NCBI GenBank assembly: GCA_900545815.1
Contig: URAM01000003.1
Span: 64,082-128,081, forward strand
DNA length: 64,000 nt
Direction of reading: 5' to 3'
Source: an uncultured Eubacteriales bacterium
GTDB lineage: Bacteria; Bacillota; Clostridia; Oscillospirales; Oscillospiraceae
How positions within the stretch are numbered: the stretch's first letter is position 1; each line of letters begins with the position of its first letter. Shown here one piece after another: positions 6,444-34,783 of this stretch. The notes under the pieces are model-generated. The model was given only the letters and a program-made list of their open reading frames with translations. It did no database searches and was not told the origin of the DNA. A program made the translations under genes and the position numbers.

Positions 6444-6463
6444 AAGGGAGTGCTCCTTTTCAT

Positions 6464-12467: not shown

Positions 12468-12650
12468 GGATAGCGAGCATCCCCTTTTTGCACACAACCA
12501 CTGTCTAATTTGTCCCTTATGAGGCAGTGACATCCGTCCCCGGGTACCACTGGATTACGGGAATCCGCCAAGATCCATGCGTATCCGGGGACAAGCTGTC
12601 AGAGAGAAGGCTCGTTGCTGTCTCTGAAAAGTCAAAAGAGGAGGTTCTTT

Positions 12651-13895: not shown

Positions 13896-14083
13896 GTCTG
13901 CCACACAACGAAACACAACTGAATGGATGTGCCGTACAGAAGTGGGCCACAATGCCTGAAGTGACCTCTGTACGGAAGCGGACAGGATTCCCCCTGTCCC
14001 AAGGGAAAACCGGAGAGGGCAACCTCTCCGGTTTTTCCCCCACCTTATCATCCTCTACTCCGATACGAGAAGGAACAAAACCT

Positions 14084-15382: not shown

Positions 15383-15404
15383 CCACAGGGAAAGGAGAAC
15401 GACC

Positions 15405-17820: not shown

Positions 17821-19035
17821 ATGGACGCACCTCTGAAAGGAATTAAAGTGCTGGAACTGGGCACTCATGTAGCGGTTCCCTCTGCCTGCCGGCTGATGGC
17901 AGAGTATGGCGCGGACGTGATCAAGATTGAGACTGCCGGTGGCGACCCCTGGCGTTACTCTGGGTTGAACGTCAACCTGACCATTGATGATTTCTCCTGC
18001 CCCGTCTTTACCATCCAGAACAACGGCAAGCGCCTGATCAGCCTGGATCTGAAAACCGAAGGCGGCAGAGCAGTGTTTATGAAGCTGCTGGAGAACACCG
18101 ATGTGTTCTGCACCAGCGTGCGCATGAAGGGTCTGGCCAAGATGGGGCTGGACTACGACACCCTGAAAAAAAAGTTCCCCAAGCTCATCTACTTCCACTT
18201 CACCGGCTACGGTCACCGCGGCCCCGACGCCGAAGCCCCCGGCTTCGACATCGCCTCCTTCTGGTCTCGGGTCGGCGCCCGTGTGGGTTGGGTGGAGGAA
18301 GGTACCTTCCCCGTCCGTGCCTCCGGCGGCTATGGCGACATGGTCACCGGTCTGCTCATCTTCGCTGGTATGGTCACCGCCCTGCGGGGTCGTGACGTCA
18401 CCGGCAAGGGCACCCTGGTCACCAACTCTCTCTTTGGCACCAGTATGTGGGTCAACGCACAGTCCATCATGTGCGCACAGCCCCCTTACAACCACCACTT
18501 CCCCGAGGACGTAGACCGTCCCGGCAGCCCCATGGTCTATGACTATGTGTGCAAGGACGGCGAATGGCTGGCGTTGGTGGGCATCGGCTATGAGAAGAAC
18601 TTCTCCCGCTACTGCAAAGCCCTGGGCATGGAAGAAGAAATCGACGACCCCCGCTGTCAGAATGAAAAAACCCTGGCGGACAGCGACTACATCTATGACC
18701 TGACCATGAAGGTGCGTGCCAAGATGAAGGAAAAGACCTCTTACGAATGGGAGGACATCTTCCGCAAGGCCGACCTGGTCTACTCCCGCCTGAACCACTT
18801 TGAGGACGTGCCCAAGGACGAACAAGCCTGGGCCAACGACTACCTCCAGGAAGTCACCTGGGGCAATGGCGTCACCAACGCCGTCGTTCGTCCTCCCCTC
18901 CACTTCAAGAGCTACGAACAGCGTGAGACTGTCTCCCTGGGCGGCATCGGCCAGCACACCGATGAAGTCCTGAAGGAATACGGCTTCACCCAGGAAATCA
19001 TTGACACCATGCGTACCAACAAAGAGATCATCTGA
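17821..19035 (+). CDS. Family III CoA-transferase (CaiB/BaiF/Frc family)
   Basis: Family-III N-terminal motif LKGIKVLELGTHVAVPSACRLMAEYGADVIKIE. AAAGGAGAA SD. Confidence 0.85.
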   Translation: MDAPLKGIKVLELGTHVAVPSACRLMAEYGADVIKIETAGGDPWRYSGLNVNLTIDDFSCPVFTIQNNGKRLISLDLKTEGGRAVFMKLLENTDVFCTSVRMKGLAKMGLDYDTLKKKFPKLIYFHFTGYGHRGPDAEAPGFDIASFWSRVGARVGWVEEGTFPVRASGGYGDMVTGLLIFAGMVTALRGRDVTGKGTLVTNSLFGTSMWVNAQSIMCAQPPYNHHFPEDVDRPGSPMVYDYVCKDGEWLALVGIGYEKNFSRYCKALGMEEEIDDPRCQNEKTLADSDYIYDLTMKVRAKMKEKTSYEWEDIFRKADLVYSRLNHFEDVPKDEQAWANDYLQEVTWGNGVTNAVVRPPLHFKSYEQRETVSLGGIGQHTDEVLKEYGFTQEIIDTMRTNKEII

Positions 19036-19150: not shown

Positions 19151-19286
19151 AGACTGGGGGAAAATTTCCCTGTACAAACTCCGGCGAATCGTTATAATAG
19201 AGTTACTATCCTTCTCTCCACGCTTTCTAACTGTGCTGGAACAGAAGATACCATTCTATTATATCAAGGTAAGGAACGTGAACGCT

Positions 19287-20678
19287 ATGGAACAAGGAAC
19301 CGCCAAGCTGGATATGCTCCACGGCTCTATTTGGGACAAACTCCTCCGGTTTGCCCTGCCAGTCGCCGCCACAGCGGCGTTAGGGCAGCTGTTTAATGCT
19401 GCGGACGTAGCCGTAGTGGGCAACTTTGCCAGCGGCAGCCGCACCGCCGCCGTAGCCGCCGTAGGCGCCAACGGGCCGATTATCAACCTGATCTTGGGGC
19501 TTTTCATCGGCATCGCTCTGGGCGCCACCGTAGTCATCGCCAACGCCATTGGCAACAACGACAGAAAAAGCGCACAAAACGCCGTTCACACCTCCATGGT
19601 CATGGCGGTGATAGGAGGGGTCATCGTAGCCATCATCGGCGAGCTGATCGCCGGCAGCCTGCTGAACCTGCTTCAGGTGCCAGAGGACGTCTACCCCCTC
19701 TCCCTGCTCTACCTGCGCATCTATTTCTTGGGTATGCCCGCCATCTTGCTCTACAACTTTGAAGCCGCTATCTTCCGCAGCATCGGCGAGACTAAGGTAC
19801 CGCTCATCGCCCTGGCCGCCTCCGGTGTCCTGAATGTGCTGCTGAACCTGCTGTTCGTCATTGGGTTCCATATGACTGTCAATGGCGTAGCCATCGCCAC
19901 GGTGCTATCTAATGTAGTCAGCTCCATCCTTTTATACCGGAAACTGCGGAAAAGCGACCAGTACATCCATGTGGAACCGCAGCTGCTGACCATTCACTGG
20001 GGCAGCTTCCGCCAGATCATGCGCATTGGCTTGCCCGCCGGCATCCAGAGCGCAGTCTTTGCCATCTCCAACATCGTCATCCAGTCCGCCATCAACAGCT
20101 TGGGCACCATCGTCATGGCCGCTTCCAGCGCTGCGCTGAACATCGAGATTATCGCCTATTACGTCATGAACTCCTTCAGCCAGGCTTGCGCCACCTTTGT
20201 GGGACAGAATTATGGTGCAGGGCAGGTCAAGCGCTGCCGAAAAATTCTCGGCCTGTGCATCTTAGAGGATGCCATTGCCACTGCGTCCGCCATTTTTATC
20301 ATTCTCTTTGCCGGAAAATTCGTTCTGGCGCTGTTCAACCCAGACCCCCAGGTCATCGACATCGGCTATTCTCGACTGCTCATCGTCTTTACTGCCTACG
20401 TCTTTAGTATGCTCTACGAGGTTATGTCTGGCTACCTTCGCGGATTTGGCATTTCCTTGGCGCCCGCCTTGCTGGTCATCTTCGGCGTTTGCGGAATACG
20501 CATCCTCTGGATTTCCTTCGTGTTCCCCGTCAAGCGCACCTTTTCCACCATCCTGTACGTCTATCCGATTAGTCTAGCCACAACCGCCTTGCTCATCGGC
20601 ATCGCTCTGTTGGTTTTCCGACCGTCCAAACGGCTGGCAGGACAGGCACAGAACGCCGATTCCGCCTCAGCAACTTGA
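19287..20678 (+). CDS. MATE-family efflux transporter
   Basis: Start MEQGTAKLDML. CGTTATAAT -10 element ~90 nt upstream. 12 TM helices with MATE-like repeat. Confidence 0.75.
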   Translation: MEQGTAKLDMLHGSIWDKLLRFALPVAATAALGQLFNAADVAVVGNFASGSRTAAVAAVGANGPIINLILGLFIGIALGATVVIANAIGNNDRKSAQNAVHTSMVMAVIGGVIVAIIGELIAGSLLNLLQVPEDVYPLSLLYLRIYFLGMPAILLYNFEAAIFRSIGETKVPLIALAASGVLNVLLNLLFVIGFHMTVNGVAIATVLSNVVSSILLYRKLRKSDQYIHVEPQLLTIHWGSFRQIMRIGLPAGIQSAVFAISNIVIQSAINSLGTIVMAASSAALNIEIIAYYVMNSFSQACATFVGQNYGAGQVKRCRKILGLCILEDAIATASAIFIILFAGKFVLALFNPDPQVIDIGYSRLLIVFTAYVFSMLYEVMSGYLRGFGISLAPALLVIFGVCGIRILWISFVFPVKRTFSTILYVYPISLATTALLIGIALLVFRPSKRLAGQAQNADSASAT

Positions 20679-20849: not shown

Positions 20850-21731
20850 TCACAGTGTCCCTCCGTTGAGTACAAACTGCCGGAATTTCTGCACCGCCGG
20901 CGGCTGATAGGCTCGGTCATCACTGACCAGGTAGAAGCTGCGCTCCCACAACGGATGGGCGATCTGGATGATCTTCACATCCAACCGCAGCAGCATATCC
21001 ATATAGGGTACCACGGCGATACCAAATCCGGCAGCAACCAAACCGGCCACCACCTGATCTTCCTCCGTCTCGTAGGCGATGACGGGTTTGCCGTCAATTT
21101 TAGAGAACAATTCCTCCACCACGCCCCGCATTCCGGAGCCTTCTGAGAAGTAGACCTGGGGATAAGGCAGGGTTTCCGTCAGATCCACCGAGTGGTTCTT
21201 TGCCAAAGGATGGTTTTTGGGCACGATGAGCACCAGATCCTGCTGCTCTACTGCAATGGCAGTTAAGCCCATTTCCACTGGCGGTTTGGATGAAAAAACC
21301 AAATCAACCTTTTTCTCTGCCAGTTCATCCAAAAGATGGCTGGTCACACCGGTGTGAAAGGCGAATCGAATGTCCTTTCCCGGGTTCTCTGCCAGGAATC
21401 GAGCTGCCAATTTGGGCACATAATCTACCCCCAACGTCCGCAGCAATCCCAGCCGGATCAGCCCCTCCCCACGGCTGACCCGCTGGAGGGATTCCACCCC
21501 CTCATCCAAAATGGACAGGGTTTCCTGGGCACAGGCTAGGAACTGTTCTCCATACTGGGTCAGGGAGATACTCCGCCCGTTCTTCTCAAACAGCGGCACC
21601 CCCAGTTCCCCCTCCAGCTGGGAGATGGCGTGGCTGAGGCTGGGCTGAGTGATGCATAGCCGCTCGGCAGTGCGGGTGTAATGCTGGACGTGAGCCAGCT
21701 CTACGAAGTAACGCAGGTGTGATAAATTCAC
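20850..21731 (-). CDS. LysR-family transcriptional regulator
   Basis: N-terminal HTH MNLSHLRYFVELAHVQHYTRTAERLCITQPSLSHAISQLE. Divergent from the hydroaromatic operon. Confidence 0.85.
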   Translation of the reverse strand: MNLSHLRYFVELAHVQHYTRTAERLCITQPSLSHAISQLEGELGVPLFEKNGRSISLTQYGEQFLACAQETLSILDEGVESLQRVSRGEGLIRLGLLRTLGVDYVPKLAARFLAENPGKDIRFAFHTGVTSHLLDELAEKKVDLVFSSKPPVEMGLTAIAVEQQDLVLIVPKNHPLAKNHSVDLTETLPYPQVYFSEGSGMRGVVEELFSKIDGKPVIAYETEEDQVVAGLVAAGFGIAVVPYMDMLLRLDVKIIQIAHPLWERSFYLVSDDRAYQPPAVQKFRQFVLNGGTL

Positions 21732-21772
21732 GCAAAATACGCCCCCTTTCTTTGGTATGATTATACTATAAC

Positions 21773-21791
21773 TGATAGAAAAAAACTATCA
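21773..21791. promoter_or_regulatory. Candidate LysR-type binding site (T-N11-A palindrome)
   Basis: TGATAG-AAAAAAA-CTATCA, a perfect inverted repeat in the divergent intergenic region. Confidence 0.45.
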
Positions 21792-21950
21792 TTTTATCAA
21801 ATTTTATTGATTTGTTATTTTCCTCACAATGGGGTACAGTAGGGTCAGCCGAGGGCGGCAGCCGCCAGGCAAGCAGCACGGACGCCTGTACCGCCGCCCC
21901 AACCAATACGAAAAAATGCCGCCGCTGGACGGCAAGAGGAGGAAACGCAT

Positions 21951-22817
21951 ATGCAGCTGTCAGGAACCACCACCCTGCTGGGACTGATTGGATCGCCGGT
22001 CGCACACTCCAAGTCCCCTGCCATGTATAACTACTGTTTTCGGAAGTTCCATATGGACTGCGCCTATCTGGCCTTTGATGTGGCCGCCGATCAGGTGGAG
22101 CAGTCCGTAAAAGCCATCCGCACCCTGCATATGCGGGGCGCCAACGTGACGATGCCCTTTAAGACCACGGTCGTCCCTTACTTAGATCGCCTGACCCCGG
22201 CGGCAGAGACCATTCAGGCCGTGAACACCATCGTCAATGAGGACGGCGTCTTGGTGGGATACAACACCGACGGCTGCGGCTACACCCAGAACCTCCGCCG
22301 GAACGGCATCGAAGTGGCCGGCAAGAAGATCACCTTGATCGGCTGTGGCGGCGTTGGTTCCTCCATCGCCGTACAGGTGGCGCTGGAAGGTGCGGCGGAG
22401 CTGGCCATCTTCAATCGGAAGGATAAGTTCTGGCCCAGCATTGAAGAACGGATGGAGGCCATCCACAAGGTCGCCCCCAACTGTGTCCTCTCCCTCCACG
22501 ACCTGGCCGACCAGGACGCCCTGCATGAGGCAGTGGATCACTGCGACATCCTCTCCAACGCCAACATGGTGGGGATGCCCCCCATGGAGGACATGAGCAA
22601 CATCAAAGACCCCAGCTGGTTCCGGCCTGATCTGATCGTCACCGATGTGGTCTACTCCCCCACCGAAACGAAAATGCTCCGAGAAGCCAAAGCCGCTGGC
22701 TGCAAGACCTGCGGCGGGCTGGGGATGCTGCTGTGCCAGGGTGCGGAAGCGTTCCGGCTGTACAGCAAGGATCTGGAGATGCCCATTGATGAGATTCAAG
22801 CACTGCTTTACGATTAA
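21951..22817 (+). CDS. Shikimate/quinate 5-dehydrogenase family (AroE-like) paralogue 1
   Basis: LIGSPVAHSKSPAMYN...NVTMPFK...NTDG...GCGGVGSSIA motifs. Confidence 0.8.
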   Translation: MQLSGTTTLLGLIGSPVAHSKSPAMYNYCFRKFHMDCAYLAFDVAADQVEQSVKAIRTLHMRGANVTMPFKTTVVPYLDRLTPAAETIQAVNTIVNEDGVLVGYNTDGCGYTQNLRRNGIEVAGKKITLIGCGGVGSSIAVQVALEGAAELAIFNRKDKFWPSIEERMEAIHKVAPNCVLSLHDLADQDALHEAVDHCDILSNANMVGMPPMEDMSNIKDPSWFRPDLIVTDVVYSPTETKMLREAKAAGCKTCGGLGMLLCQGAEAFRLYSKDLEMPIDEIQALLYD

Positions 22818-22850
22818 CCACCAACGAAAGAGAGAAAGGATGAACAAGAC

Positions 22851-24077
22851 ATGACAAAGACAGATTCCAGAAGATACTATCCCACTGCCTTAGCCCTGTA
22901 CATCACCTACTTTGTCCTGGGCATCGCAGCAACCATCATGGGGCAGTACAAGCAGGACTTCGCCGCCCTGTGGGGCGCCAGCAAGCTGGCAGACGGCAGC
23001 TTTGACGTATCCAGCGTCGTGGCCGTCATCGCCGCCATCGGCCTGGGCCGTCTGGTGGCCTTCCCCATCGCAGGTCCTCTGTCCGACCGTCTCGGCCGCC
23101 GCCTGTCCGCTCTGATCGGCTGCGTCCTCTACGCCATCTTCCTGCTGGCCATCACTTTTGCACCGAATATGTATATCGGTTACGTCCTGGCCGTCATCAG
23201 CGGTATGGCAAACTCCTTCCTGGACACTAGCATCACCCCCTCCTGCATGGAGATCTTCAAGGAAAAGGGCACCATCGCCAACATCTTCACCAAGCTGGCC
23301 ATCTCCATCGCACAGTTCCTGCTCCCCTTTGCCATCGGCTTTGTGGCCGCACGGAACCTGCCCTTCCACACCATCTTCATCGCCACTGCGATCATCATCA
23401 TCGTAGACGGCATCTTCCTCTGCTTCCTGCCCTTCCCGCCTTTTGAACGAGTGGTCAAGAGCGCCGACAAGCCCAAGGAAAAGATGCACTTCACCGCCCC
23501 CGCTATCATCCTGATCTGCCTGGGCTTCACCACCTCCACCACCTTCATGCTGTGGATGAACTGCAACCAGGAGCTGGGCAAGCTGTACGGCTTACAGGAT
23601 CCTGCTATGATTCAGTCCTTCTACTCCGTGGGCATCGTCTGCGCCCTGTTCGTCAGCGCTGCACTGCTCAGCCGCAAGGTAGAACCGGCTAAGATCCTCA
23701 TCGTCTATCCCTGCATCGCCTTTATCACCCTGGGCGTCATCTACTTCGTACAGACCCCGTTCATCTGCCTGGCCGGCGGCTTCCTCCTGGGCTTCTTCGC
23801 AGCAGGCGGCGTGCTCCAGCTGGTCGCCGCAGTCGCCAACGAGATGTTCCCCAAGAACCGCGGCGTCATCACCTCCATCGTCATGATCGCCTCCAGCGTG
23901 GCCAACTACCTGGTCATCAGCGTGGCCGGCGTCCTGACCCGTGTGGGCGGCACCAACGGCCCCCGTCTGGTTCTGCTGTTCAATATGGCAGTCACCCTGG
24001 TGGGCATCCTGCTGGCTCTGTACCTGAACGTCTGCCAGAAGCGGGAGCGGGCAGCTGCTGAAAGAGCGGAGGCATAA
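22851..24077 (+). CDS. MFS transporter
   Basis: 12 TM helices with the MFS loop motif (GPLSDRLGRR). Confidence 0.75.
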   Translation: MTKTDSRRYYPTALALYITYFVLGIAATIMGQYKQDFAALWGASKLADGSFDVSSVVAVIAAIGLGRLVAFPIAGPLSDRLGRRLSALIGCVLYAIFLLAITFAPNMYIGYVLAVISGMANSFLDTSITPSCMEIFKEKGTIANIFTKLAISIAQFLLPFAIGFVAARNLPFHTIFIATAIIIIVDGIFLCFLPFPPFERVVKSADKPKEKMHFTAPAIILICLGFTTSTTFMLWMNCNQELGKLYGLQDPAMIQSFYSVGIVCALFVSAALLSRKVEPAKILIVYPCIAFITLGVIYFVQTPFICLAGGFLLGFFAAGGVLQLVAAVANEMFPKNRGVITSIVMIASSVANYLVISVAGVLTRVGGTNGPRLVLLFNMAVTLVGILLALYLNVCQKRERAAAERAEA

Positions 24078-24080
24078 CGG

Positions 24081-24596
24081 ATGAAAACAACGAACAACCT
24101 CTTTCTCATTGGCTTCATGGGTGCGGGCAAATCCTCTGTCTCCGCCGCCCTGGGACAGAAGCTCGGCCGTGCGGTCGTTGAAATGGATCAGTGCATCTCG
24201 GAAAACGAGGGCATGACCATCCCCGAAATTTTCGCCCAGAAGGGCGAGCCCTACTTCCGTACCTGTGAAACAGCCCTGCTCCAGGGCTGTGCCCAGGGGG
24301 AACCCCGTATCATCTCCTGCGGCGGCGGCGTGCCCATGCGGGAGGAAAACGTAGCGGCTATGAGAGCCTGCGGCACCATCGTCCTGCTCACCGCCCGTCC
24401 CGAAGTCATCCTGGAGCGAGTCAAGGACAGCGATGACCGCCCTCTGCTCCAGAACCGCAAAAGCGTAGAAGGCATCTCCGAACTGATGGAGCAGCGCCGA
24501 CCCAAATACGAGGCTGCGGCCGATGTGACCGTGGACACCTCGGACTTGAACATCGAAGAAGTCTGCGAAGCAGTATTGCAGCAGGTCAACCATTGA
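24081..24596 (+). CDS. aroK: Shikimate kinase-like P-loop kinase
   Basis: LIGFMGAGKSSV Walker A, 171 aa, shikimate-kinase length and motif layout. Confidence 0.75.
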   Translation: MKTTNNLFLIGFMGAGKSSVSAALGQKLGRAVVEMDQCISENEGMTIPEIFAQKGEPYFRTCETALLQGCAQGEPRIISCGGGVPMREENVAAMRACGTIVLLTARPEVILERVKDSDDRPLLQNRKSVEGISELMEQRRPKYEAAADVTVDTSDLNIEEVCEAVLQQVNH

Positions 24597-24620
24597 TAGA
24601 AACACAAGGAGGAAACTACT

Positions 24621-25466
24621 ATGTCTCAGAAATATCCCATCACCGTCAGCTCCTGGACCCTGGGCGATCAGTGCACCTTTGAAGAACGTGTTGCAGCAGC
24701 AAAGGCCGCCGGTTTTGAAGGCATCGGTCTCCGTGCGGAAACCTATGTGGACGCCCTGAACGAAGGTCTGTTCGATGCGGACATCCTGGCCATCCTGGAA
24801 AAGTACGATATGAAGGTCACCGAAGTGGAATACATCGTCCAGTGGGCAGATGACCACCGCTCCTACGAGCAGAAGTACAAGGAACAGATGTGCTTCCATA
24901 TGTGCCATCTGTTCGGCGTCAACCACATCAACTGCGGCCTGATGGAGAACTACTCTGTCGAACACACCGCTCAGAAGCTGCGTGAACTGTGCCACCGTGC
25001 AGGCAAGTACACCATCGGCGTGGAACCCATGCCCTACAGCGGTCTGCCCGATGTGAAGAAGGCTTGGGCTGTGGTCAAGGAATCCGGCTGCGACAACGCA
25101 AAGCTCATCCTGGACTCCTGGCACTGGATCCGTGCCAACCAGAGCTATGACCCCTCCGTTCTGGCTGACGTCCCCGCTGATAAGGTAGTCGCCGTCCAGA
25201 TCAACGATGTTCAGGCACACCCCTATGCCGCTCCCGTCCTCCGGGACGAGTCCATGCATGACCGCATGATGCCCGGCACCGGCCACGGCGACACCGCCGG
25301 CTTTGTGAAGATGATCCGCGAAAAGGGCATCGAACCCGCTGTCATGGGCGTGGAAGTCATCAGCGATGAGATCCTGAGCGCCGGCGTGGCAGAAGCCGCC
25401 AAGGCAAACTTCAACGCAACCCGCGCTGTTCTGGAACAGGCTTGGCCTGAAGTAGTGGAACAGTAA
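24621..25466 (+). CDS. Xylose-isomerase-like TIM-barrel (sugar-phosphate isomerase/epimerase) protein; 3-dehydroshikimate-dehydratase-like in this context
   Basis: ~280 aa with (beta/alpha)8 pattern and conserved His/Glu/Asp positions (HLFGVNHINCG...GVEPMP...DSWHW). AGGAGG SD. Confidence 0.55.
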   Translation: MSQKYPITVSSWTLGDQCTFEERVAAAKAAGFEGIGLRAETYVDALNEGLFDADILAILEKYDMKVTEVEYIVQWADDHRSYEQKYKEQMCFHMCHLFGVNHINCGLMENYSVEHTAQKLRELCHRAGKYTIGVEPMPYSGLPDVKKAWAVVKESGCDNAKLILDSWHWIRANQSYDPSVLADVPADKVVAVQINDVQAHPYAAPVLRDESMHDRMMPGTGHGDTAGFVKMIREKGIEPAVMGVEVISDEILSAGVAEAAKANFNATRAVLEQAWPEVVEQ

Positions 25467-25522
25467 GCGCCACACACCGAACCCTTAAATTTGATCTACG
25501 ACTTTTTTGGAGGTATTACAAT

Positions 25523-26398
25523 ATGGAAAGCAGAATCTCTGGACACACGAAGCTCTTTTGCCTGATCGGCTCCCCCGTTGGCCACTCCGGCTCCCCCGCT
25601 ATGTACAACTACACCTTCGAACGCCTGGGCATTGACGCCGCTTACCTGGCCTTTGACATTCCCCTGGAGCAGGTGGAAGCAGGCGTAGAAGCCCTCAAGA
25701 CCCTGGGCGTAGGCGGCTTCAACGTGACCATGCCGGACAAGACCGCTGTCTCCCACCTGGTGGACGAGCTGTCCCCCGCAGCCAAACTCATCGGCGCCTG
25801 CAACACCGTCACCGTGGACGAGAACGGCAAGCTGACCGGCCACAACACCGATGGTATGGGCTTCGTCCGCAACCTGCATGAGCATGGCGTGGAAGTCAAG
25901 GGCAAGAAACTGGTGGTCATGGGCGCAGGCGGCGCAGCAACCGCCATCTGTATGCAGACCGCTCTGGACGGCGCCGCTGAGATCGCCATCTTCAACCGTA
26001 CCGGCTATGACTTCTACTCCAACGGCGAACTGACCGTCCAGAAGCTGGCAGAAGCGGTGCCCAACTGCAAAGTCACCATCCAGCCCCTCCAGGACAAGGA
26101 AGCCCTGGCAGAAGCGGTCAACCATTGTGACATCCTGGTCAACGCCACCAAGGTGGGCATGAAGCCCCTGGAAGACCAGAGCCTCATCGACCCCTCCCTG
26201 TTCCGTCCTGACCTGGTGGTTGCCGACACCGTCTACAACCCCAGAGAGACCCGCATGATCCAGGAAGCCAAGGCAGCCGGCTGCAAGATCGCCGTAGGCG
26301 GCATCGGTATGCTGCTGTGGCAGGGTGTGGCAGCGTTCAAGCTGTACACCGGCAAGGATATGCCTGCGCAGGAAGTCCTGGAGAAGTTCTTCTCCTGA
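25523..26398 (+). CDS. Shikimate/quinate 5-dehydrogenase family (AroE-like) paralogue 2
   Basis: LIGSPVGHSGSPAMYN...NVTMPDK...NTDGMG...GAGGAATAI motifs. Confidence 0.8.
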   Translation: MESRISGHTKLFCLIGSPVGHSGSPAMYNYTFERLGIDAAYLAFDIPLEQVEAGVEALKTLGVGGFNVTMPDKTAVSHLVDELSPAAKLIGACNTVTVDENGKLTGHNTDGMGFVRNLHEHGVEVKGKKLVVMGAGGAATAICMQTALDGAAEIAIFNRTGYDFYSNGELTVQKLAEAVPNCKVTIQPLQDKEALAEAVNHCDILVNATKVGMKPLEDQSLIDPSLFRPDLVVADTVYNPRETRMIQEAKAAGCKIAVGGIGMLLWQGVAAFKLYTGKDMPAQEVLEKFFS

Positions 26399-26454
26399 GT
26401 TCCCGCCTGTAACGTCTGAAATTACCGAAGATACCAAAGAGGAGGAGTTAAGAT

Positions 26455-28383
26455 ATGAAGTTTCCGACTATGTTTTCCCCGGTGCAGATCGGCACTGTGA
26501 CCGTCCCCAACCGTTTCGTCGTGCCTCCCATGGGCAACAACTTCGCCAACACCGATGGCACCCTCAGCGACCGTTCTCTGTCCTACTACCAGGCACGTGC
26601 CAAGGGCGGTTTCGGCCTGATCACCATCGAATCCACCGTCGTCTACAAGGAAGCCAAGGGCGGCCCCCGCAAGCCCTGCCTGTTCTCTGACGACACCGTT
26701 GACAGCTTCCGCCGAGTGGCAGACGCATGTCACGCCTACGGCGCCAAGGTCTCCATCCAGCTCCAGCACGCTGGCCCCGAGGGCAACTCCGCCCTCACCG
26801 GCTACCCCCTGAAGGCAGCCAGCGCCATGCCCGCTGCGGTCGGTCGTGAGATCCCCGTGGCCATGCCTACCGAGGAAGTGTACCGCCTGATCGAGTGCTA
26901 CGGCGACGCCGCTCGCCGTGCCCAGCAGGCTGGCATCGACATGGTTGAAGTCCACTGCGCCCACGGTTACCTGGTGAGCACCTTCATCTCCCAGCGTACC
27001 AACAACCGCACCGATGAGTTCGGCGGCTGCTTTGAAAACCGGATGCGTCTGCCCCGCCTCATCATCGAAAACATCCGTCGGAAGACTGGCGGCAACCTGC
27101 CCATCCTCTGTCGTATCAACGCCAGCGATGAAGTGGAAGGCGGCCAGACCGTTCAGGACGCAGCTGCTGTGGCCGCTTACCTGGAACAGGAATGCGGCGT
27201 AGACGCCCTCCATGTGACCCGTGCTGTCCACCTCCATGACGAGTTTATGTGGGCGCCTGGCATCACCCACGGCGGCTTCAACGCCAACCTGGTCACTGAG
27301 ATCAAGCAGGCTGTCTCCGTCCCCGTCATTGCTGTGGGTCGTTTTACCGAACCTCAGTACGCAGAACTGCTGGTCAAGCAGGGTCGTGCCGACCTGATCG
27401 CCTTCGGCCGTCAGAGCATCGCTGACCCCGAACTGCCCGCCAAGGCAAGAACCGGCAACCTGGAGACTCTGGCTCCCTGCATCGGCTGCCTGCTGGGCTG
27501 CGTGCCTAATATGTTCGCCGGCCGTCCCATCTCCTGCGCCGTAAACCCCTGCGTTGGCCGTGAATCTGACCTGACGCCCGCCGAAGTGTCCAAGAATGTG
27601 GTCGTGGTCGGCGGTGGCCCCGGCGGTCTGTACGCCGCTTGGATCTGCGCCCTGCGTGGGCACCAGGTCACCCTGCTGGAGAAGCACCCGGAACTGGGCG
27701 GCAACTTCCGCATCGCCGCTTACCCCACCGGCAAGGGTCAGATCACCGAAGTCATCCGCTCCTTCATCGTCAAATGCGAGAAGGCCGGCGTGGATCTGCG
27801 CTGCAACGTGGAAGCAGATGAAGCCCTCCTCACTTCCCTGCATCCCGATGCCATCATCCTGGCCACCGGCTCCACCCCCCTCATCCTGCCCATCCCCGGC
27901 CTGGATACCTGCGGCTACATCACCGCTCAGGATATGCTGGAAGGCAAGGCGCCCATGGGACAGAAGGTTCTGGTGGTCGGCGGCGGCATGGTGGGCTGCG
28001 AAGCTGCCGAATACCTGGCAGAACGGGGCCACGAGGCTGCTGTGATTGAGATGAAGGACGTTATCGCCGCTGACGTCACCCCTGAAAACCGTCGTTATAT
28101 GTTCGCGAACTTTGAAGAACACCATGTCCTCCTGCGGCCCAGCGCCAAGGTCAGCCAGTTCTATCCCGATGGCGTGGACTACACCCTGGCTGATGGCACT
28201 GCCGGTTCCCTCCGTGGGTATGACAATGTGGTTCTGGCCATGGGTTCCCGTTCCAACGCCGTGCTGAAGGAAACCGCCGAGAAGGTCGCTCCCCAGGTCT
28301 TTGTCATTGGCGAAGCTGCCAAGGCGCCCGGCAACGCCGTCCTGGCCACCCATGACGCCCTGGAAGCTGCCCTTCAGATCTGA
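26455..28383 (+). CDS. Second OYE TIM-barrel + FAD/NAD(P)-binding two-domain reductase (enoate-reductase architecture)
   Basis: GAGGAGG SD. OYE motifs (HCAHGYLVSTFISQRTNNRTDE). C-terminal VVVVGGGPGGLYAA and VLVVGGGMVGCEAAEYL Rossmann motifs. Paralogue of 4500-6443. Confidence 0.85.
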   Translation: MKFPTMFSPVQIGTVTVPNRFVVPPMGNNFANTDGTLSDRSLSYYQARAKGGFGLITIESTVVYKEAKGGPRKPCLFSDDTVDSFRRVADACHAYGAKVSIQLQHAGPEGNSALTGYPLKAASAMPAAVGREIPVAMPTEEVYRLIECYGDAARRAQQAGIDMVEVHCAHGYLVSTFISQRTNNRTDEFGGCFENRMRLPRLIIENIRRKTGGNLPILCRINASDEVEGGQTVQDAAAVAAYLEQECGVDALHVTRAVHLHDEFMWAPGITHGGFNANLVTEIKQAVSVPVIAVGRFTEPQYAELLVKQGRADLIAFGRQSIADPELPAKARTGNLETLAPCIGCLLGCVPNMFAGRPISCAVNPCVGRESDLTPAEVSKNVVVVGGGPGGLYAAWICALRGHQVTLLEKHPELGGNFRIAAYPTGKGQITEVIRSFIVKCEKAGVDLRCNVEADEALLTSLHPDAIILATGSTPLILPIPGLDTCGYITAQDMLEGKAPMGQKVLVVGGGMVGCEAAEYLAERGHEAAVIEMKDVIAADVTPENRRYMFANFEEHHVLLRPSAKVSQFYPDGVDYTLADGTAGSLRGYDNVVLAMGSRSNAVLKETAEKVAPQVFVIGEAAKAPGNAVLATHDALEAALQI

Positions 28384-28507: not shown

Positions 28508-28545
28508 CAAGCGGACATTTCTTTCGAAATGTCCGCTTGTCTTTG
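28508..28545 (+). terminator. Rho-independent terminator of the hydroaromatic operon
   Basis: Stem CAAGCGGACATTTC / GAAATGTCCGCTTG, then TCTTT. Confidence 0.7.
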
Positions 28546-28813: not shown

Positions 28814-30034
28814 TTACTTTCTGCGGTTGAACATTTCCATCAGATCGTCAAAGGGATCCTTTTTGGCCGGTGCTGCCTTGGGCTGCTCAGGCGCAGGAGC
28901 AGCCTTCTGCTGGGTGGCAGTGCTGAACGGATCAAACTCTACCGCCTGAAAGAAGCTCTCCTGGGGCGTCTGAGGGGCAGGTGCAGGGGTGGGTTCGGGC
29001 ACAGGTGCGGGAGCCGGTTCCTGCTGAGTGACCTGGCTGCTGATCTGGGAGAAGGAGGGCACTTCCGGTTCCTCGTCCGCATCGTCAAAGCCGGTGGCAA
29101 TGACGGTGACCCGCATCTCGTCCTCCATGTTCTCATCGAAGATGCTGCCGAAGATGATGTTGGCTTCGGGATGAGCAGCCTGCTGCACCAGGGTGACAGC
29201 GGTATCCACCTCGTCCAGGCCGATGTCCTTGCCGCTGGTGATGTTGATGAGCACGCCCTTGGCGCCATTGATGGAAGTCTCCAGCAACGGGGAGGAGACG
29301 GCCAGCTTGGCCGCTTCCTTGGCCTTGTTCTCGCCTGCGGCACGGCCTACGCCCATGTGGGCAAGACCGGCATCCTTCATGACGGAGGTCACATCAGCGA
29401 AGTCCAGGTTGATGACGCCCACCTTTTGAATCAGGTCGGAGATAGACTCCACCGCCTGACGGAGCACGTCATCTGCGATCTCGAAGGCGTTGGCCAGGGT
29501 GATCTTCTGGTCGGTGGCCATCTTTAACCGTTCGTTGGGGATGATGACCAGGGCATCCACCTTGTTCTTCAGCTCCGTGATGCCTTCCTCGGCCTGGCGC
29601 ATACGCACCTTGCCTTCAAAGGCGAAGGGCTTGGTAACCACGCCCACGGTGAGGATGCCCAGCTCCCGAGCCACGTCTGCCACGATGGGGCTGCCGCCGG
29701 TACCGGTGCCGCCGCCCATACCACAGGTGACAAAGACCATATCGGTGTTTTCCAGCGCCTTAGACAGCTGACTGCGGTTTTCCTCGGCTGCCTTCCGGCC
29801 TACATCGGGCTTTGCGCCTGCGCCCTTGCCGTGGGTCAGCTTCTCGCCGATCTGGAGCTTAAAGGTGGCGTTGGAGGCATCCAGTGCCTGCTTGTCCGTG
29901 TTGACCGCCACAAAATCCACACCCTTGGTGCCGGAGAGCACCATGCGGTTGACTACGTTGTTGCCGCCGCCGCCGACGCCGACGACTTTGATGTTTACTG
30001 CGCTGTTGGGCTCAGTTTCGAATCCAAAGGACAT
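28814..30034 (-). CDS. ftsZ: Cell division GTPase FtsZ
   Basis: GGGGNN tubulin signature (VGVGGGGNNVVNRM), T7 loop, Pro/Ala-rich C-terminal linker and conserved C-terminal peptide. GGGGGAA SD. Confidence 0.95.
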   Translation of the reverse strand: MSFGFETEPNSAVNIKVVGVGGGGNNVVNRMVLSGTKGVDFVAVNTDKQALDASNATFKLQIGEKLTHGKGAGAKPDVGRKAAEENRSQLSKALENTDMVFVTCGMGGGTGTGGSPIVADVARELGILTVGVVTKPFAFEGKVRMRQAEEGITELKNKVDALVIIPNERLKMATDQKITLANAFEIADDVLRQAVESISDLIQKVGVINLDFADVTSVMKDAGLAHMGVGRAAGENKAKEAAKLAVSSPLLETSINGAKGVLINITSGKDIGLDEVDTAVTLVQQAAHPEANIIFGSIFDENMEDEMRVTVIATGFDDADEEPEVPSFSQISSQVTQQEPAPAPVPEPTPAPAPQTPQESFFQAVEFDPFSTATQQKAAPAPEQPKAAPAKKDPFDDLMEMFNRRK

Positions 30035-30177
30035 ATTTGTTTCCCCCTATATTTTCTTCGCATACGAAGTAATCACGCAAAATGAATGTACCTTATTATT
30101 GTAAACTGAAACAGGGAACAGGTCAATAGGTTCCGGAGTATTTCCTGTTCAATTTTTCCCACATTTCCTTCCTGTTG

Positions 30178-30963
30178 TCAGGATTTTTTATTTTTCGTCA
30201 GATGCGGGTGTCCGTCAGCGTAGGTCATATCCAACGTCCCCTTGTCGTCCTTGCTCCAGTTGACATCTACATACTTTTCCAGCACGGCTTCCAGCATCTT
30301 CACCTGGTAGTCAAAGTCGGCATCTGCCAGTATTTTCACCGTCAGCTGTCCCCGATAATCCATCACCAGCAGCTTGCTGTCTGTGCAGTCCACACTACGC
30401 ACATCCTCCAGCAATTCCCGCCCCTTCATGGCCTTGAGCAGCCGGAGCAAGCTGTCCCGCATGGGTTTATCCTCGCTCTTGACCTTCATGCTCTGTCCCG
30501 CCTCTGGGGACACCAGCTCCAGGCCGGTGATTTGGATAAATTCCTTTGGTTTTTTGGTGGTGTCCAGCACCTTGCCCTCCTCGTTGACCAGCCACCACTC
30601 CTTTCCGGATTGGATGGCGGCGGCGGCGTTCGTCTCGGCCACAGTGATCACCAGGGTGTCCGGCAGCTTGCGCTTGATGTTCACCGAGCGCACATAGGCC
30701 AGCTCATCCAGCAGCTTCCGAGCCGTCTCGGTCTTGTTCACTAAAAACAGGTTATCTCCCTTGCTCACTCCAGAGGCTTTGGCGATCTCCTCGGTGGAGT
30801 ACCGTTGGTTGCCCTCCACCTCAAACTGGTTCACCTTGAAAAAGACAATGCAGCCAGCACCGATTACCACGGCGGTCACCACCACTGCCAGCACCAAATA
30901 CAGGCTCAGAAAGCGTCCGCCGCCTCGACTGCGGCGCCTTCTGCGCTTGCGTGGTCTTGCCAT
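30178..30963 (-). CDS. ftsQ: Cell division protein FtsQ/DivIB (POTRA domain)
   Basis: Arg-rich N-terminus, single TM helix, POTRA-like region (FEVEGNQRYSTEEI...LFLVN). Position in dcw cluster. Confidence 0.75.
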   Translation of the reverse strand: MARPRKRRRRRSRGGGRFLSLYLVLAVVVTAVVIGAGCIVFFKVNQFEVEGNQRYSTEEIAKASGVSKGDNLFLVNKTETARKLLDELAYVRSVNIKRKLPDTLVITVAETNAAAAIQSGKEWWLVNEEGKVLDTTKKPKEFIQITGLELVSPEAGQSMKVKSEDKPMRDSLLRLLKAMKGRELLEDVRSVDCTDSKLLVMDYRGQLTVKILADADFDYQVKMLEAVLEKYVDVNWSKDDKGTLDMTYADGHPHLTKNKKS

Positions 30964-30983
30964 CCTATCCCTCCTATCTGTTT

Positions 30984-32246
30984 CTATGGTTGTTGCGGGA
31001 TTCGCTGCAAATGAGCCCCCAAACAGGTCAGATCTCCGGCCAGATCGGCATAACCCCGATCGATATGACGCAGACCGGTGATCACGCTCTCCCCTTCCGC
31101 TCCCAGGGCGGCCACCACCAAAGCGGCGCCTCCCCGCAGGTCAGGGGCATGGACGGGCGCTCCTTTCAGCTGGGAGACTCCGGTGACCACCGCCACTCGG
31201 CCTTCCACCCGCACATCCGCTCCCATCCGCAGCAGCTCGCCGCAGTGCCGGAAGCGATTTTCAAAAATAGTCTCTACAAACACGCTGGTTCCCTGGGCAC
31301 GGCACAAGGCTGCCAGTACCGGCGGTTGGGCATCGGTGGGAAACCCCGGATAGGGCGCCGTGCGCACGGGGCGGACGGCTTTCAGCCGTTGGGGACAGGT
31401 CATGGTGATGCTGTCCGGCCGAGTATGCACCTCGCATCCCGCCATCCGGTACACTTCCAGCACCGGCAGCAGCGCCCGCCGGTCTACCCCAGTCAGGGTT
31501 GCTTCTCCCCCAGCCGCCGCCACGGCAGACAGGTAGGTAGCTGCCACGATGCGGTCTGCGATGATGGTGTGTTCGGTATCGTGCAGGGAACGTTTTCCTT
31601 GGACGATCACAGTGGAGCTGCCCGCTCCAGAGACGTCCGCTCCGGCGCTGCACAGGAACGCTTCCAAGTCCACAATCTCCGGCTCCCGGGCGGCGTTGGA
31701 GATCACCGTCACGCCATCGGCGCAGCAGGCCGCCAGCATGGCATTCTCGGTGGCTCCTACGCTGGGGATAGACAGGACGATCTCCCGTCCTCGAAGGTGG
31801 TGTCCACGGCAGTGGAGACTGCCGCCCTGACATTTTACCTGTCCGCCCATGGCGGTCAATGCCGCCAGGTGCAGATCGATGGGTCTGGGGCCTAGCTCAC
31901 AGCCCCCAGGCATGGATAGCTCCGCCTGCCCCATGCGTCCCAGAATGGCCCCCAGGAACACCACGGAAGACCGCATCTCCCGCATGAGCTGATCGGGCAC
32001 ATCCCAGCGGTGCATGGTGCTGGAATCCACCGTGATGGTTTCCCCGTCCTGCACGACCACGCAGCCCAGGTGGCGCAGAATGGCCACGGAAGCGTCTACA
32101 TCGGTTAGTTGGGGGCAGTTATGTAGGACACTGACGGCGCCGGTCAGGATGGTGGCCGCCAGAATGGGGAGGACGCTGTTTTTTGCGCCCTGGACGGTCA
32201 CTTCCCCGAACAGGGGGCTGCCGCCTTGAATGAGATAAGCACTCAC
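30984..32246 (-). CDS. murA: UDP-N-acetylglucosamine 1-carboxyvinyltransferase MurA
   Basis: GTG start after GGAGGAA. MSAYLIQGGSPLFGEVTVQGAKNSVLPILAA N-terminus is typical of MurA. 420 aa. Confidence 0.9.
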   Translation of the reverse strand: MSAYLIQGGSPLFGEVTVQGAKNSVLPILAATILTGAVSVLHNCPQLTDVDASVAILRHLGCVVVQDGETITVDSSTMHRWDVPDQLMREMRSSVVFLGAILGRMGQAELSMPGGCELGPRPIDLHLAALTAMGGQVKCQGGSLHCRGHHLRGREIVLSIPSVGATENAMLAACCADGVTVISNAAREPEIVDLEAFLCSAGADVSGAGSSTVIVQGKRSLHDTEHTIIADRIVAATYLSAVAAAGGEATLTGVDRRALLPVLEVYRMAGCEVHTRPDSITMTCPQRLKAVRPVRTAPYPGFPTDAQPPVLAALCRAQGTSVFVETIFENRFRHCGELLRMGADVRVEGRVAVVTGVSQLKGAPVHAPDLRGGAALVVAALGAEGESVITGLRHIDRGYADLAGDLTCLGAHLQRIPQQP

Positions 32247-32315
32247 GTTCCATTCCTCCGCTTCGTCTGGATTCTCAGGCCATCCTATGCGAAGGAAGGG
32301 GACGTTGTGTGAAAG

Positions 32316-33443: not shown

Positions 33444-33485
33444 AGGAAAACACCTCGTTCTGATTTGTCTCTTTTTCTCCCCCGC

Positions 33486-34736: not shown

Positions 34737-34783
34737 TTGGATGCGCCTTCTTTCCTAGTCAGGATGGGTAACGCAGGTTCCGC

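Follow-up and report, generated by a model that had tools for sequence, protein, structure and literature searches.

Shikimate and quinate are converted in the gut to cyclohexanecarboxylate and hippurate precursors. In the 1970s, Whiting and Coggins reportedly found that Lactobacillus plantarum takes both acids anaerobically through 3-dehydroshikimate to dihydroshikimate and 3,4-dihydroxycyclohexanecarboxylate, and aerobically to protocatechuate and catechol; to our knowledge, that work never linked the conversions to genes. In Listeria monocytogenes, the qui1 and qui2 loci serve uptake of shikimate and quinate and their oxidation by YdiB/SdhD (bioRxiv 10.1101/2025.04.08.647683; 10.1101/2025.08.13.670189), and QuiC2 dehydrates 3-dehydroshikimate, in its unphosphorylated form, to protocatechuate (bioRxiv 10.1101/2025.04.08.647683). 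QuiR activates with shikimate, and QuiR2 (Lmo2233) represses, with modulation by protocatechuate (bioRxiv 10.1101/2025.04.08.647683; 10.1101/2025.08.13.670189). Protocatechuate accumulates from shikimate, reduced products are unreported, and the authors frame the system as a partitioning between chorismate and protocatechuate (bioRxiv 10.1101/2025.04.08.647683). In Eggerthella lenta and Sutterella wadsworthensis, the enoate alkene of shikimate is reduced to hydroshikimate and thereby used as an electron acceptor; the portion of that report drawn on here attributes this to a shikimate-induced 'flavin reductase' acting on shikimate itself, and describes no dehydrogenase or dehydratase partners for it (Little et al., bioRxiv 10.1101/2022.12.26.521950).

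We analysed a 64-kb stretch of DNA (the window) from a strictly anaerobic gut Oscillospiraceae bacterium, in which a LysR gene stands divergent from six plus-strand genes spaced 3-56 nt apart. The seven genes and a T-N11-A box lie where the first-pass annotation had placed them, the open reading frames matching its coordinates exactly:

20850-21731, minus strand: LysR regulator of QuiR/QuiR2 type, divergent from the operon (Pfam HTH_1 and LysR_substrate)
21775-21789, no strand: LysR operator ATAG-N7-CTAT (T-N11-A), the centre of TGATAG-N7-CTATCA (21773-21791), read from the sequence
21951-22817, plus strand: AroE1, shikimate/quinate dehydrogenase paralogue 1, accessory (Shikimate_dh_N and SDH_C)
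22851-24077, plus strand: MFS transporter, presumed shikimate/quinate importer (MFS_1)
24081-24596, plus strand: shikimate kinase AroK, accessory (Pfam SKI, 155 bits)
24621-25466, plus strand: xylose-isomerase-like TIM barrel, putative QuiC2-class single-domain 3-dehydroshikimate dehydratase (PF01261)
25523-26398, plus strand: AroE2, core shikimate dehydrogenase, Lmo2236 counterpart (NCBIfam PRK12548)
26455-28383, plus strand: OYE (FMN), 4Fe-4S and FAD/NAD(P)H ene-reductase of 642 aa, FadH/2-enoate-reductase family (Oxidored_FMN and Pyr_redox_2)
28508-28539, no strand: bidirectional terminator-like hairpin at the operon end, with a 14-bp stem and T-rich tails on both strands

Judged by orthology, this locus is the gut-Clostridia counterpart of Listeria qui2 (lmo2233 and lmo2234-lmo2238) and not a new kind of system. 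Five core genes, lmo2233-lmo2237, are shared at 51-59% identity: LysR 51% (Lmo2233, QuiR2), TIM barrel 53% (Lmo2234, PDB 2G0W), OYE 59% (Lmo2235), shikimate dehydrogenase (SDH) 54% (AroE2 to Lmo2236) and MFS 57% (Lmo2237). Identities to the C. difficile cluster are 57% for AroE2, 58% for the MFS transporter and 62% for the OYE enzyme. The divergent LysR, hydroaromatic substrates and QuiR-family regulation are also in common, whereas gene order differs (LysR <-> TIM-OYE-SDH-MFS-MFS in Listeria, locus L084; SDH-MFS-AroK-TIM-SDH-OYE in the window), and the window adds a second dehydrogenase and the shikimate kinase. The implication in the first-pass annotation that such chemistry lacks known genes is outdated, since orthologous qui2 has been studied, down to its induction by shikimate through QuiR, its repression by QuiR2 and its protocatechuate product.

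We consider it likely that the locus is a self-contained module, under a QuiR/QuiR2-type LysR, for plant hydroaromatic acids. The MFS protein, whose presumed direction is inward, would import shikimate and probably quinate too; AroE2, of the YdiB/SdhD class, and AroE1 would then use NAD(P)+ to oxidise the 3-hydroxyl, yielding 3-dehydroshikimate, from which three fates could branch. No dehydroquinase gene was found within the window, so quinate use would need one elsewhere in the genome.

In the PDB, the LysR protein matches the effector domain of Lmo0488 (QuiR; 5TED, E 7e-38) best. The T-N11-A box noticed at first pass proved to be real and conserved: of 74 intergenic regions between orthologous LysR genes and operons, 49 contain ATAG-N7-CTAT, whereas shuffling predicts 0.54 and never exceeded 3 in 500 rounds. 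A search of the Listeria and C. difficile intergenic regions did not reveal the exact box.

Gene association was counted at 57 genomic loci where the surroundings of a TIM-barrel homologue were complete. A divergent LysR is present in 56 and at least one SDH in all 57 (two in 41), while OYE is found in 51, MFS in 49 and AroK in 31. Co-occurrence of the module genes far exceeds chance, and over 50 genomes of gut Firmicutes, as well as C. difficile, carry the module; the core (LysR, MFS, TIM barrel, SDH, OYE) is present in Blautia as well. AroK, chorismate mutase and dehydroquinases occur as genomic partners of the module.

Both dehydrogenases retain every canonical shikimate-binding and catalytic residue. 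AroE2 scores 441 bits on PRK12548, exceeding the cut-off of 432, has YdiB-class 3TNL and 1NPD as its closest structures, and is the counterpart of Lmo2236, presumably the published SdhD. AroE1 scores 402 bits on the same model, conserves HSxSP, NVxMPxK, NT, TDG, Y and Q, and shows 54% identity to AroE2 and 51% to Lmo2236. The residues that bind the carboxylate and hydroxyls are invariant in AroE1, AroE2 and the shikimate-bound 3TNL protein. This counts against a different substrate such as an inosose, cyclitol or keto-sugar, on which SDH-fold proteins (5-ketofructose reductase, 7COK) and IolI-like TIM barrels can act. With Listeria orthologues that respond to and act on shikimate, a TIM barrel that resembles QuiC1 and not IolI at two active-site positions, and the genomic partners listed above, we regard such a substrate as extremely improbable. 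The earlier view of a LysR-controlled shikimate/quinate locus, separate from aromatic biosynthesis by aro genes, is supported.

The TIM barrel is the most conserved protein of the module (76-99% identity across families), and its description as a relative of dehydroshikimate dehydratases holds: after Lmo2234, QuiC1 and IolI rank next among matching folds, rather than sugar-phosphate epimerases. Q193 and S211 are common to the barrel and QuiC1 but not to IolI, and the active site of the barrel matches the metal-dependent enolising site of QuiC1. Lmo2234, the sole qui2 gene of this dehydratase fold, is what we take to be QuiC2. Given 53% identity to Lmo2234 and the conserved active site, the TIM barrel is predicted to dehydrate 3-dehydroshikimate to protocatechuate, the first of the three fates. 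Identity to the 3-dehydroshikimate dehydratases QuiC1, QsuB and AsbF (EC 4.2.1.118) is only about 20%, and no residues of the barrel could be aligned with R64 and L97 of QuiC1. As a single-domain protein, the barrel lacks the HPPD-like C-terminal domain that QuiC1 and QsuB carry. Unlike these enzymes, it occurs in anaerobes lacking a beta-ketoadipate or petrobactin pathway.

The first-pass annotation had instead proposed that AroK phosphorylates shikimate, the TIM barrel eliminates the phosphate and the enoate reductase reduces the resulting diene toward cyclohexene/cyclohexane carboxylates. AroK does lie directly upstream of the TIM barrel, with a gap of 24 nt, and one database protein (P0009) reads as an AroK-TIM fusion, but the latter, seen on one contig, consists of a truncated AroK that reads through into the TIM gene and is probably an artefact. 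Of the 57 loci, 26 have no AroK; among them are those of Blautia, Listeria and C. difficile, which retain both the TIM barrel and OYE. A fusion of AroK with chorismate mutase (CM_2-SKI) occurs in 11 loci. Moreover, the substrate of the QuiC1 enolising site is a 3-keto compound, not a phosphate ester, and the Listeria class dehydrates unphosphorylated substrate. This part of the proposal is not supported, and its chance of being right is minimal.

AroK itself shows the Walker A GFMGAGKS, FRxxE, GGG and RPLL motifs. Its optional presence and the chorismate mutase fusions argue for biosynthetic salvage over a leaving-group role, and where present it quite probably phosphorylates incoming shikimate and thereby supplies shikimate-3-phosphate for the synthesis of aromatic amino acids, as a branch to chorismate. 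Salvage might even be the whole purpose, the dehydrogenases and AroK feeding imported quinate and shikimate to chorismate while TIM barrel and OYE dispose of the excess. Such a role would suit the kinase and its fusions inside the operon, the two SDHs seen in 25 of 26 AroK loci that have OYE and MFS, and the partitioning described by the Listeria authors. However, the core is conserved without AroK, a transporter and a housekeeping kinase would suffice for shikimate salvage, and a 642-aa Fe-S flavoenzyme is a costly overflow valve; we therefore judge salvage as the sole function very unlikely.

The OYE enzyme (Oxidored_FMN, 249 bits, plus Pyr_redox_2) carries the classical OYE motif HCAHGY together with CIGCLLGC-x11-C, and its FMN domain is closest to ene-reductases of the YqjM/TsOYE class; it keeps H-x-x-H-G-Y, which corresponds to S-E-G-Y in FadH. 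Its scores fall short of the equivalog cut-offs for BaiCD, BilR and mycofactocin-OYE. In Listeria, its gene appears to be among the qui2 genes marked uncharacterised in the preprint, whose text names none. A second subfamily (OYE_b), 33-36% identical to the window enzyme and 53-70% among its own members, lies in Megasphaera and on contig L088 beside a dehydroquinase and a Lmo0490-like SDH, in sub-operons from which the TIM barrel is absent, and in the Clostridium botulinum/sporogenes group and Carnobacterium as part of a complete LysR/MFS operon. These qui1-type operons share with the window a QuiR-family LysR, MFS, SDH-family dehydrogenase (in the qui1-type operons YdiB-like, Lmo0490/3TNL-like, 61%) and HxxH-Y OYE/Fe-S/FAD enzyme, but have a type I or type II dehydroquinase as dehydratase in place of the QuiC2 TIM barrel. 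Both the dehydroquinase and the SDH yield 3-dehydroshikimate, a 2-cyclohexenone, which argues that the OYE enzymes reduce its enone.

We therefore propose that the window OYE is a 3-dehydroshikimate ene-reductase, although, given the promiscuity of this family, the substrate cannot be deduced from operon context alone. In this second fate, our main mechanistic proposal and one we hold at about even odds, NAD(P)H would reduce the C1=C2 bond and a dehydrogenase would then reduce the ketone, giving dihydroshikimate-type cyclohexane carboxylates. Reduction of the C=C bond toward such products, also part of the first-pass scheme, is plausible. In a strict anaerobe the plant acid would become a net sink for reducing equivalents, and the Fe-S flavoenzyme probably makes plant acids an electron sink. 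Shikimate reduction in Eggerthella and Sutterella follows the same electron-acceptor logic, whereas the window enzyme would act on the 3-keto form. Their flavin reductase is said to be of a fumarate-reductase-like type.

Alternatively, the locus might only oxidise and dehydrate, as in Listeria, with protocatechuate exported for cross-feeding, metal chelation or signalling and an auxiliary OYE that serves to recycle NADH or to reduce quinones derived from protocatechuate, or that is unrelated. Accumulation of protocatechuate in Listeria, the response of QuiR2 to it and the strong conservation of the TIM barrel all speak for this, and fast conversion of 3-dehydroshikimate by the barrel would make OYE a competitor, not a cooperator. 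Yet a strict anaerobe gains nothing from making NADH without an acceptor, o-quinone formation requires oxygen, and OYE is kept in nearly all loci. OYE_b also occurs in complete LysR-dehydroquinase-SDH-MFS operons without any dehydroshikimate dehydratase, so protocatechuate cannot be their end product. We consider protocatechuate production alone unlikely.

Enone reduction on a cyclohexane ring would follow the chemical logic of bile-acid 7-alpha-dehydroxylation by bai (BaiA/BaiCD/BaiE/BaiH): 3-hydroxyl to ketone, dehydration, C=C reduction by an OYE/Fe-S/FAD enzyme and ketone reduction. As a third, speculative and rather doubtful fate, the TIM barrel might remove the 5-hydroxyl of the reduced ketone, creating a second enone for OYE in a bai-like reductive dehydroxylation. 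With 475 bits on the BaiCD model, where the cut-off is 825, the window OYE is not a BaiCD orthologue; the dehydrogenase and dehydratase belong to families unrelated to those of bai, and the window-type module has no conserved CoA ligase or transferase. The branch points reportedly seen in Lactobacillus plantarum are exactly those predicted for the window gene set.

Shikimate and quinate, the latter obtained chiefly from the chlorogenic acids of coffee, fruit and forage, are plant acids abundant in the diet, and their conversion by gut microbes supplies host hippurate and catechol pools; to our knowledge, this conversion has yet to be traced to particular genes in gut anaerobes. The locus analysed here, from an uncultured gut Oscillospiraceae bacterium, comprises six tightly spaced + strand genes, divergent from a LysR regulator gene:

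20850-21731, - strand: divergent LysR regulator gene, QuiR/QuiR2 family
21775-21789: LysR box ATAG-N7-CTAT, within TGATAG-N7-CTATCA
21951-22817, + strand: AroE1, dehydrogenase of the shikimate dehydrogenase (SDH) family
22851-24077, + strand: MFS transporter
24081-24596, + strand: shikimate kinase AroK (Pfam SKI)
24621-25466, + strand: xylose-isomerase-like TIM barrel
25523-26398, + strand: AroE2, second SDH-family dehydrogenase
26455-28383, + strand: OYE, 642 aa; OYE/FMN domain at the N-terminus, iron-sulfur motif CxxCxxxC-x11-C, FAD/NAD(P)H domain at the C-terminus
28508-28539: bidirectional terminator-like hairpin closing the operon

The first-pass annotation had described this region as a LysR-controlled hydroaromatic locus, and both its genes and its LysR box were recovered. 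Of 74 intergenic regions between orthologous LysR genes and operons, 49 contain ATAG-N7-CTAT, where shuffled sequences would give 0.54; the box is thus a genuine operator motif. The LysR protein is 51% identical to Lmo2233, and its best PDB match is 5TED, the effector domain of QuiR (Lmo0488; E 7e-38), with CatM and BenM far behind. We also considered a riboswitch or other leader element in the 219-nt intergenic region and rejected it: Rfam families gave zero matches there and across the whole window, and folding energies were unremarkable over the 74 loci (mean z -0.66). The AT-rich promoter/operator region is separated from the first gene by a GC-rich leader of about 110 nt (21830-21940), with a GC-rich hairpin (21917-21934) directly before the ribosome-binding site; the closest Oscillospiraceae loci carry comparable GC hairpins of differing sequence.

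The first-pass annotation overlooked an orthologous operon already known in Listeria monocytogenes, qui2 (lmo2233-lmo2238), from which the window operon differs by a slight elaboration, namely AroK and a second SDH. The Listeria locus (L084) has a LysR gene (lmo2233) divergent from TIM (lmo2234)-OYE/FAD-SDH-MFS-MFS, the C. difficile locus (L085) a LysR gene divergent from TIM-OYE-SDH-MFS, and synteny of the core genes extends over these two and 57 further loci. Full-length identities between window and Listeria proteins are 53% for the TIM barrel, 59% for the OYE, 54% for the SDH (AroE2) and 57% for the MFS transporter. The window therefore combines, as a qui2-type locus does, a divergent QuiR/QuiR2-family LysR gene with Lmo2234-, Lmo2236-, Lmo2235- and Lmo2237-like genes within one operon.

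According to a 2025 preprint from the Christendat laboratory that reviews earlier publications on the system, the qui1 and qui2 operons of Listeria turn environmental quinate and shikimate into protocatechuate: YdiB, AroD and SdhD yield 3-dehydroshikimate, and QuiC2, a 'novel class' of dehydroshikimate dehydratase, makes protocatechuate from it (10.1101/2025.04.08.647683). For both operons QuiR is the activator and shikimate its co-inducer, and Lmo2233 (QuiR2), encoded divergently upstream of qui2, is a repressor responsive to protocatechuate (10.1101/2025.04.08.647683). A second preprint likewise assigns uptake, sequential oxidation and dehydration to qui1/qui2 (10.1101/2025.08.13.670189). 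Uncharacterised genes remain in each operon, and the fate of the accumulating product protocatechuate is called enigmatic (10.1101/2025.04.08.647683). Shikimate induction and protocatechuate production are known for Listeria only. As Lmo2234 is the sole dehydratase-fold protein of qui2, we infer that it is QuiC2.

Homologues of the TIM barrel form more than 1,200 clusters at 90% identity in public data (E 1e-10 or better), and relatives are encoded in at least 292 stretches of species-representative genomes. Among the 57 loci with complete context, a divergent LysR gene accompanies the TIM barrel in 56, at least one SDH in all 57 and a second in 41, the OYE in 51 and an MFS transporter in 49; AroK is found in only 31. 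This recurrence marks a conserved module rather than a fortuitous set of neighbours. Flanking genes vary between taxa, and the module is therefore self-contained; in locus L001, cluster proteins are 96-99% identical to those of the window. Carriers include Oscillospiraceae, Blautia, Anaerotignum, Megasphaera, Agathobaculum and C. difficile, from gut samples of human, chicken, goat and other hosts. Taken together, the qui2 module is widespread and unusually conserved among strictly anaerobic gut Firmicutes, and the gut conversion of quinate and shikimate to protocatechuate thereby gains a concrete gene marker.

Conservation of the TIM barrel itself is unusually high: proteins from Oscillospiraceae, Lachnospiraceae and Megasphaera (Negativicutes) share 76-90% identity (L031-L080). 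It also occurs in metagenome-assembled genomes that carry the labels Bacteroidaceae, Prevotella, Succinivibrio, Hallerella and Streptococcus pasteurianus, a distribution suggesting that the module spreads horizontally among gut bacteria, that contigs were mis-binned, or both. A variant in the Enterococcus casseliflavus group (L086, 6865-16852) has a LysR gene divergent from TIM-SDH-MFS, followed by two proteins without a Pfam match, a hydantoinase-like protein, an SDR and a 971-aa protein in which OYE, FMN_bind and FAD_binding_2 are fused; the place of the FadH-type OYE appears to be taken by a flavin reductase of another kind.

The TIM barrel had been proposed to resemble dehydroshikimate dehydratases, and this assignment is well supported by comparison with characterised relatives. 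Its match to PDB 2G0W (Lmo2234 of Listeria monocytogenes) has an E value of 3e-94, and clustering with unrelated sugar-phosphate epimerases was not observed, these ranking below both Lmo2234 and QuiC1.

Comparison values of the TIM barrel against related proteins
2G0W (Lmo2234): 44.4
QuiC1 dehydroshikimate dehydratase, 5HMQ: 31.8
IolI inosose isomerase: 31.3
Next match: 27.2
IolE: about 24
AsbF: 23.0
Sugar epimerases: lower

The QuiC1 active site comprises R64, L97, E134, L136, D165, H168, Q191, S206, R210 and E239 (PMC7442255). In a phmmer alignment, allowing a constant +2 offset for the tag, QuiC1 E134, L136, D165 and H168 correspond to E135, M137, D165 and H168 of the window protein, and Q191, S206, R210 and E239 to Q193, S211, R215 and E245. 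The metal-binding/catalytic constellation of QuiC1 (E134, D165, H168, Q191, S206, R210, E239) is thus matched, and all eight mapped residues are invariant across 32 homologues from Listeria, Enterococcus, C. difficile and gut Clostridia; Q193 and S211 agree with QuiC1 and not with IolI. An identity as a QuiC1/QsuB orthologue was nevertheless rejected, because the protein, at 281 aa, consists of one domain and does not have the two-domain architecture of dehydratase plus HPPD-like domain, and because it reaches only 48.7 bits against the cut-off of 1200 of the NCBIfam QuiC equivalog, over profile positions 114-254 only. It instead falls into the separate Lmo2234 (QuiC2) class, and it is for Listeria QuiC2 that conversion of 3-dehydroshikimate to protocatechuate has been reported (10.1101/2025.04.08.647683).

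Both dehydrogenases have their nearest structures in the YdiB class. The SDH residues for catalysis (the Lys/Asp pair) and substrate binding, found in HSxSP, NVxMPxK, NT, TDG, the carboxylate-binding Tyr and a Gln, do not vary among AroE1, AroE2, Lmo2236, the proteins of C. difficile and Blautia, and 3TNL, a Listeria protein with bound shikimate and NAD. AroE2 lies above the PRK12548 cut-off of 432 (441) and AroE1 slightly under it (402); identities to Lmo2236 are 54% and 51%, and to Lmo0490/3TNL 47% and 44%, respectively. AroE2 is the universally present copy and AroE1 an accessory duplicate. The 'FNRKD' of AroE1 resembles the NAD-accepting YdiB class and AroE2 has 'FNRTGYD', a difference that by itself does not fix substrate or cofactor preference. 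We did not adopt 3TNL/3TOZ as the structure of the cluster dehydrogenase, as it belongs to the Listeria paralogue of Lmo2236, the two being only 53% identical.

The kinase was the point on which the first-pass interpretation failed: the hydroaromatic locus, the dehydroshikimate dehydratase and the LysR box stood, C=C reduction stayed plausible, and phosphorylation by AroK to create a leaving group for the TIM barrel did not. AroK matches Pfam SKI over its full length (155 bits), and its translation shows Walker A, the shikimate-binding Asp/Arg, the GGG motif and the lid Arg; it misses the NCBIfam equivalog cut-off (149 versus 204) and is therefore a divergent member of the family. It is dispensable for the module, being absent from 26 of the 57 loci, those of Listeria, C. 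difficile and Blautia among them. In 11 loci of Anaerotignum, Lachnospiraceae and Ruminococcus types (L045, 9174-9977; L029, L030, L032, L033, L036, L044, L047, L049, L062 and L067), an N-terminal chorismate mutase (CM_2) is fused to AroK, which would tie the kinase to aromatic amino-acid synthesis from imported shikimate and speaks against the leaving-group role. The one database protein reading as an AroK-TIM fusion (P0009) was discarded as evidence of coupling, its AroK being truncated and the fusion a read-through on a single contig.

The OYE comprises Oxidored_FMN (residues 6-334) and Pyr_redox_2 (381-607), and its CIGCLLGC...C aligns with the cluster cysteines of FadH (CxxCxxxC-x11-C). 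Its best full-length structures are NCR 6QKG and FadH 1PS9, and it fits the FadH/2-enoate reductase architecture of FMN TIM barrel, 4Fe-4S motif and FAD/NAD(P)H domains. Orthology to a characterised member was not found: it scores 475 bits on BaiCD (cut-off 825), 468 on bilirubin reductase BilR (750) and 483 on the mycofactocin OYE (793). The enzyme is a distinct subfamily without an assigned substrate, uncharacterised even in Listeria. The FMN domain is closest to YqjM/TsOYE-type ene-reductases and retains the classical H-x-x-H-G-Y carbonyl-binding/proton-donor motif, where FadH has S-E-G-Y, and this fits a free enone or enoate better than a CoA thioester.

Comparison tells most about this enzyme. 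A second OYE subfamily (OYE_b) is found in qui1-type operons, for which we compared those of Clostridium, Carnobacterium and Megasphaera in place of Listeria qui1 itself. OYE_b proteins are 33-36% identical to the window OYE and 53-70% identical to one another, keep HxxH-Y, and are encoded with a dehydroquinase (DHQase) and an Lmo0490-like dehydrogenase in operons that have no TIM barrel:

L039, 16566-20386, - strand: Megasphaera elsdenii, OYE_b-SDH-DHQase I, adjoining a qui2-type cluster
L088, 7001-11731: SDH-DHQase II-OYE_b

The remaining two operons (L089, 5027-11346; L090, 3735-11266) are those of the Clostridium botulinum/sporogenes group, with a LysR gene divergent from DHQase I-SDH-MFS-OYE_b, and of Carnobacterium gallinarum, with a LysR gene divergent from OYE_b-SDH-MFS-DHQase I-MFS. 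The dehydroquinase type is interchangeable and OYE_b is retained. Since the operons of Clostridium and Carnobacterium each include their own regulator and transporter and are thus complete, and 3-dehydroshikimate, a beta-carboxy-2-cyclohexenone, is the product of dehydrogenase plus dehydroquinase, it would be the only sensible substrate for their OYE_b; by extension, we propose the same substrate for the window OYE.

NAD(P)H-dependent reduction of C1=C2 of 3-dehydroshikimate by the window OYE is plausible, given OYE paralogues in dehydroquinase and SDH operons without a dehydroshikimate dehydratase, together with the HxxHGY site. The enzyme might also reduce the enone that would arise if the reduced ketone lost its 5-hydroxyl to the TIM barrel, and an SDH paralogue could then reduce the ketone, so that shikimate or quinate would consume reducing equivalents, of use to a fermenting anaerobe. 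The OYE is thereby a precise candidate for a reductive branch with a specific predicted substrate and, if this branch is confirmed, the unexplained accumulation of protocatechuate in Listeria would be reinterpreted. Lactobacillus plantarum was reportedly found in the 1970s to form dihydroshikimate and 3,4-dihydroxycyclohexanecarboxylate anaerobically and protocatechuate and catechol aerobically, and rat gut flora is known to reduce shikimate; the proposed route agrees with both. The shikimate 'flavin reductases' of Eggerthella and Sutterella, which we take to be fumarate-reductase-like, are distinct from the window OYE. They are shikimate-induced and have been shown to reduce shikimate (10.1101/2022.12.26.521950). 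The literature consulted on lmo2234-2236, dihydroshikimate, quinate with ene-reductase and Lactobacillus hydroaromatics yielded no gene-level description of a reductive branch.

A broader reading, which we put forward tentatively and consider rather unlikely, is that both OYE/Fe-S/FAD subfamilies of qui operons are dedicated hydroaromatic-enone ene-reductases that form, with SdhD/YdiB, a CoA-independent, bai-like route of reductive dehydroxylation. Dehydroquinase would be the partner of one subfamily and the QuiC2 TIM barrel that of the other; the conjugated C=C made by either dehydratase would be saturated by its OYE, and dietary quinate and shikimate would become dihydroshikimate and 3,4-dihydroxycyclohexanecarboxylate. 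If true, the genes still lacking for the classical route by which gut microbes turn quinate and shikimate toward cyclohexanecarboxylate and hippurate would be in hand, as would those of the anaerobic pathway of lactobacilli. Oxygen sensitivity is typical of this OYE/Fe-S family, and the 'dead-end protocatechuate' paradox of Listeria would then be a shunt seen when the presumably oxygen-sensitive reductases are inactive.

The window encodes a second FadH-type OYE/FAD enzyme (ORF 4500-6719, - strand, likely start near 6443), 36% identical to the cluster OYE and with an HAAHGY motif, adjoined by a 'putative esterase' (3334-4443, PF00756) and two PucR-type regulators (flanks 1390-2946 and 7849-9525). 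That esterase and enoate reductase, 15 kb from the operon, might hydrolyse chlorogenate-type esters and reduce the cinnamate half is pure speculation.

No signs of mobile elements were found around the qui-like operon, which lies in an ordinary chromosomal context, with a cell-division/cell-wall (dcw) cluster (28814-39315, - strand) directly downstream:

28814-30034, - strand: ftsZ
30178-30963, - strand: DivIB/FtsQ-like gene
30984-32246, - strand: MurA-like gene
32316-33443, - strand: murG
36931-39315, - strand: PASTA-containing PBP

Immediately upstream of the LysR gene lie a family III, CaiB/Frc-like CoA-transferase of 404 aa (17821-19035) and a MATE efflux protein (19284-20678). We considered both as pathway members and set them aside: their synteny is confined to the three nearest relatives (L001, L002, L027), other flanks differing, and they are therefore probably unrelated to the module. 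Further upstream, a MoxR-like AAA_5 ATPase gene (15360-16244) overlaps that of a VWA/CoxE-like protein (16234-17442) by 11 nt, an arrangement typical of MoxR-VWA chaperone pairs. Another small-molecule utilisation unit (9825-15382) may follow a PucR regulator; it would consist of an iron-containing alcohol dehydrogenase (9825-11024), an aldehyde dehydrogenase (11121-12467) and two MFS-family ORFs (12615-13895 and 13802-15382).
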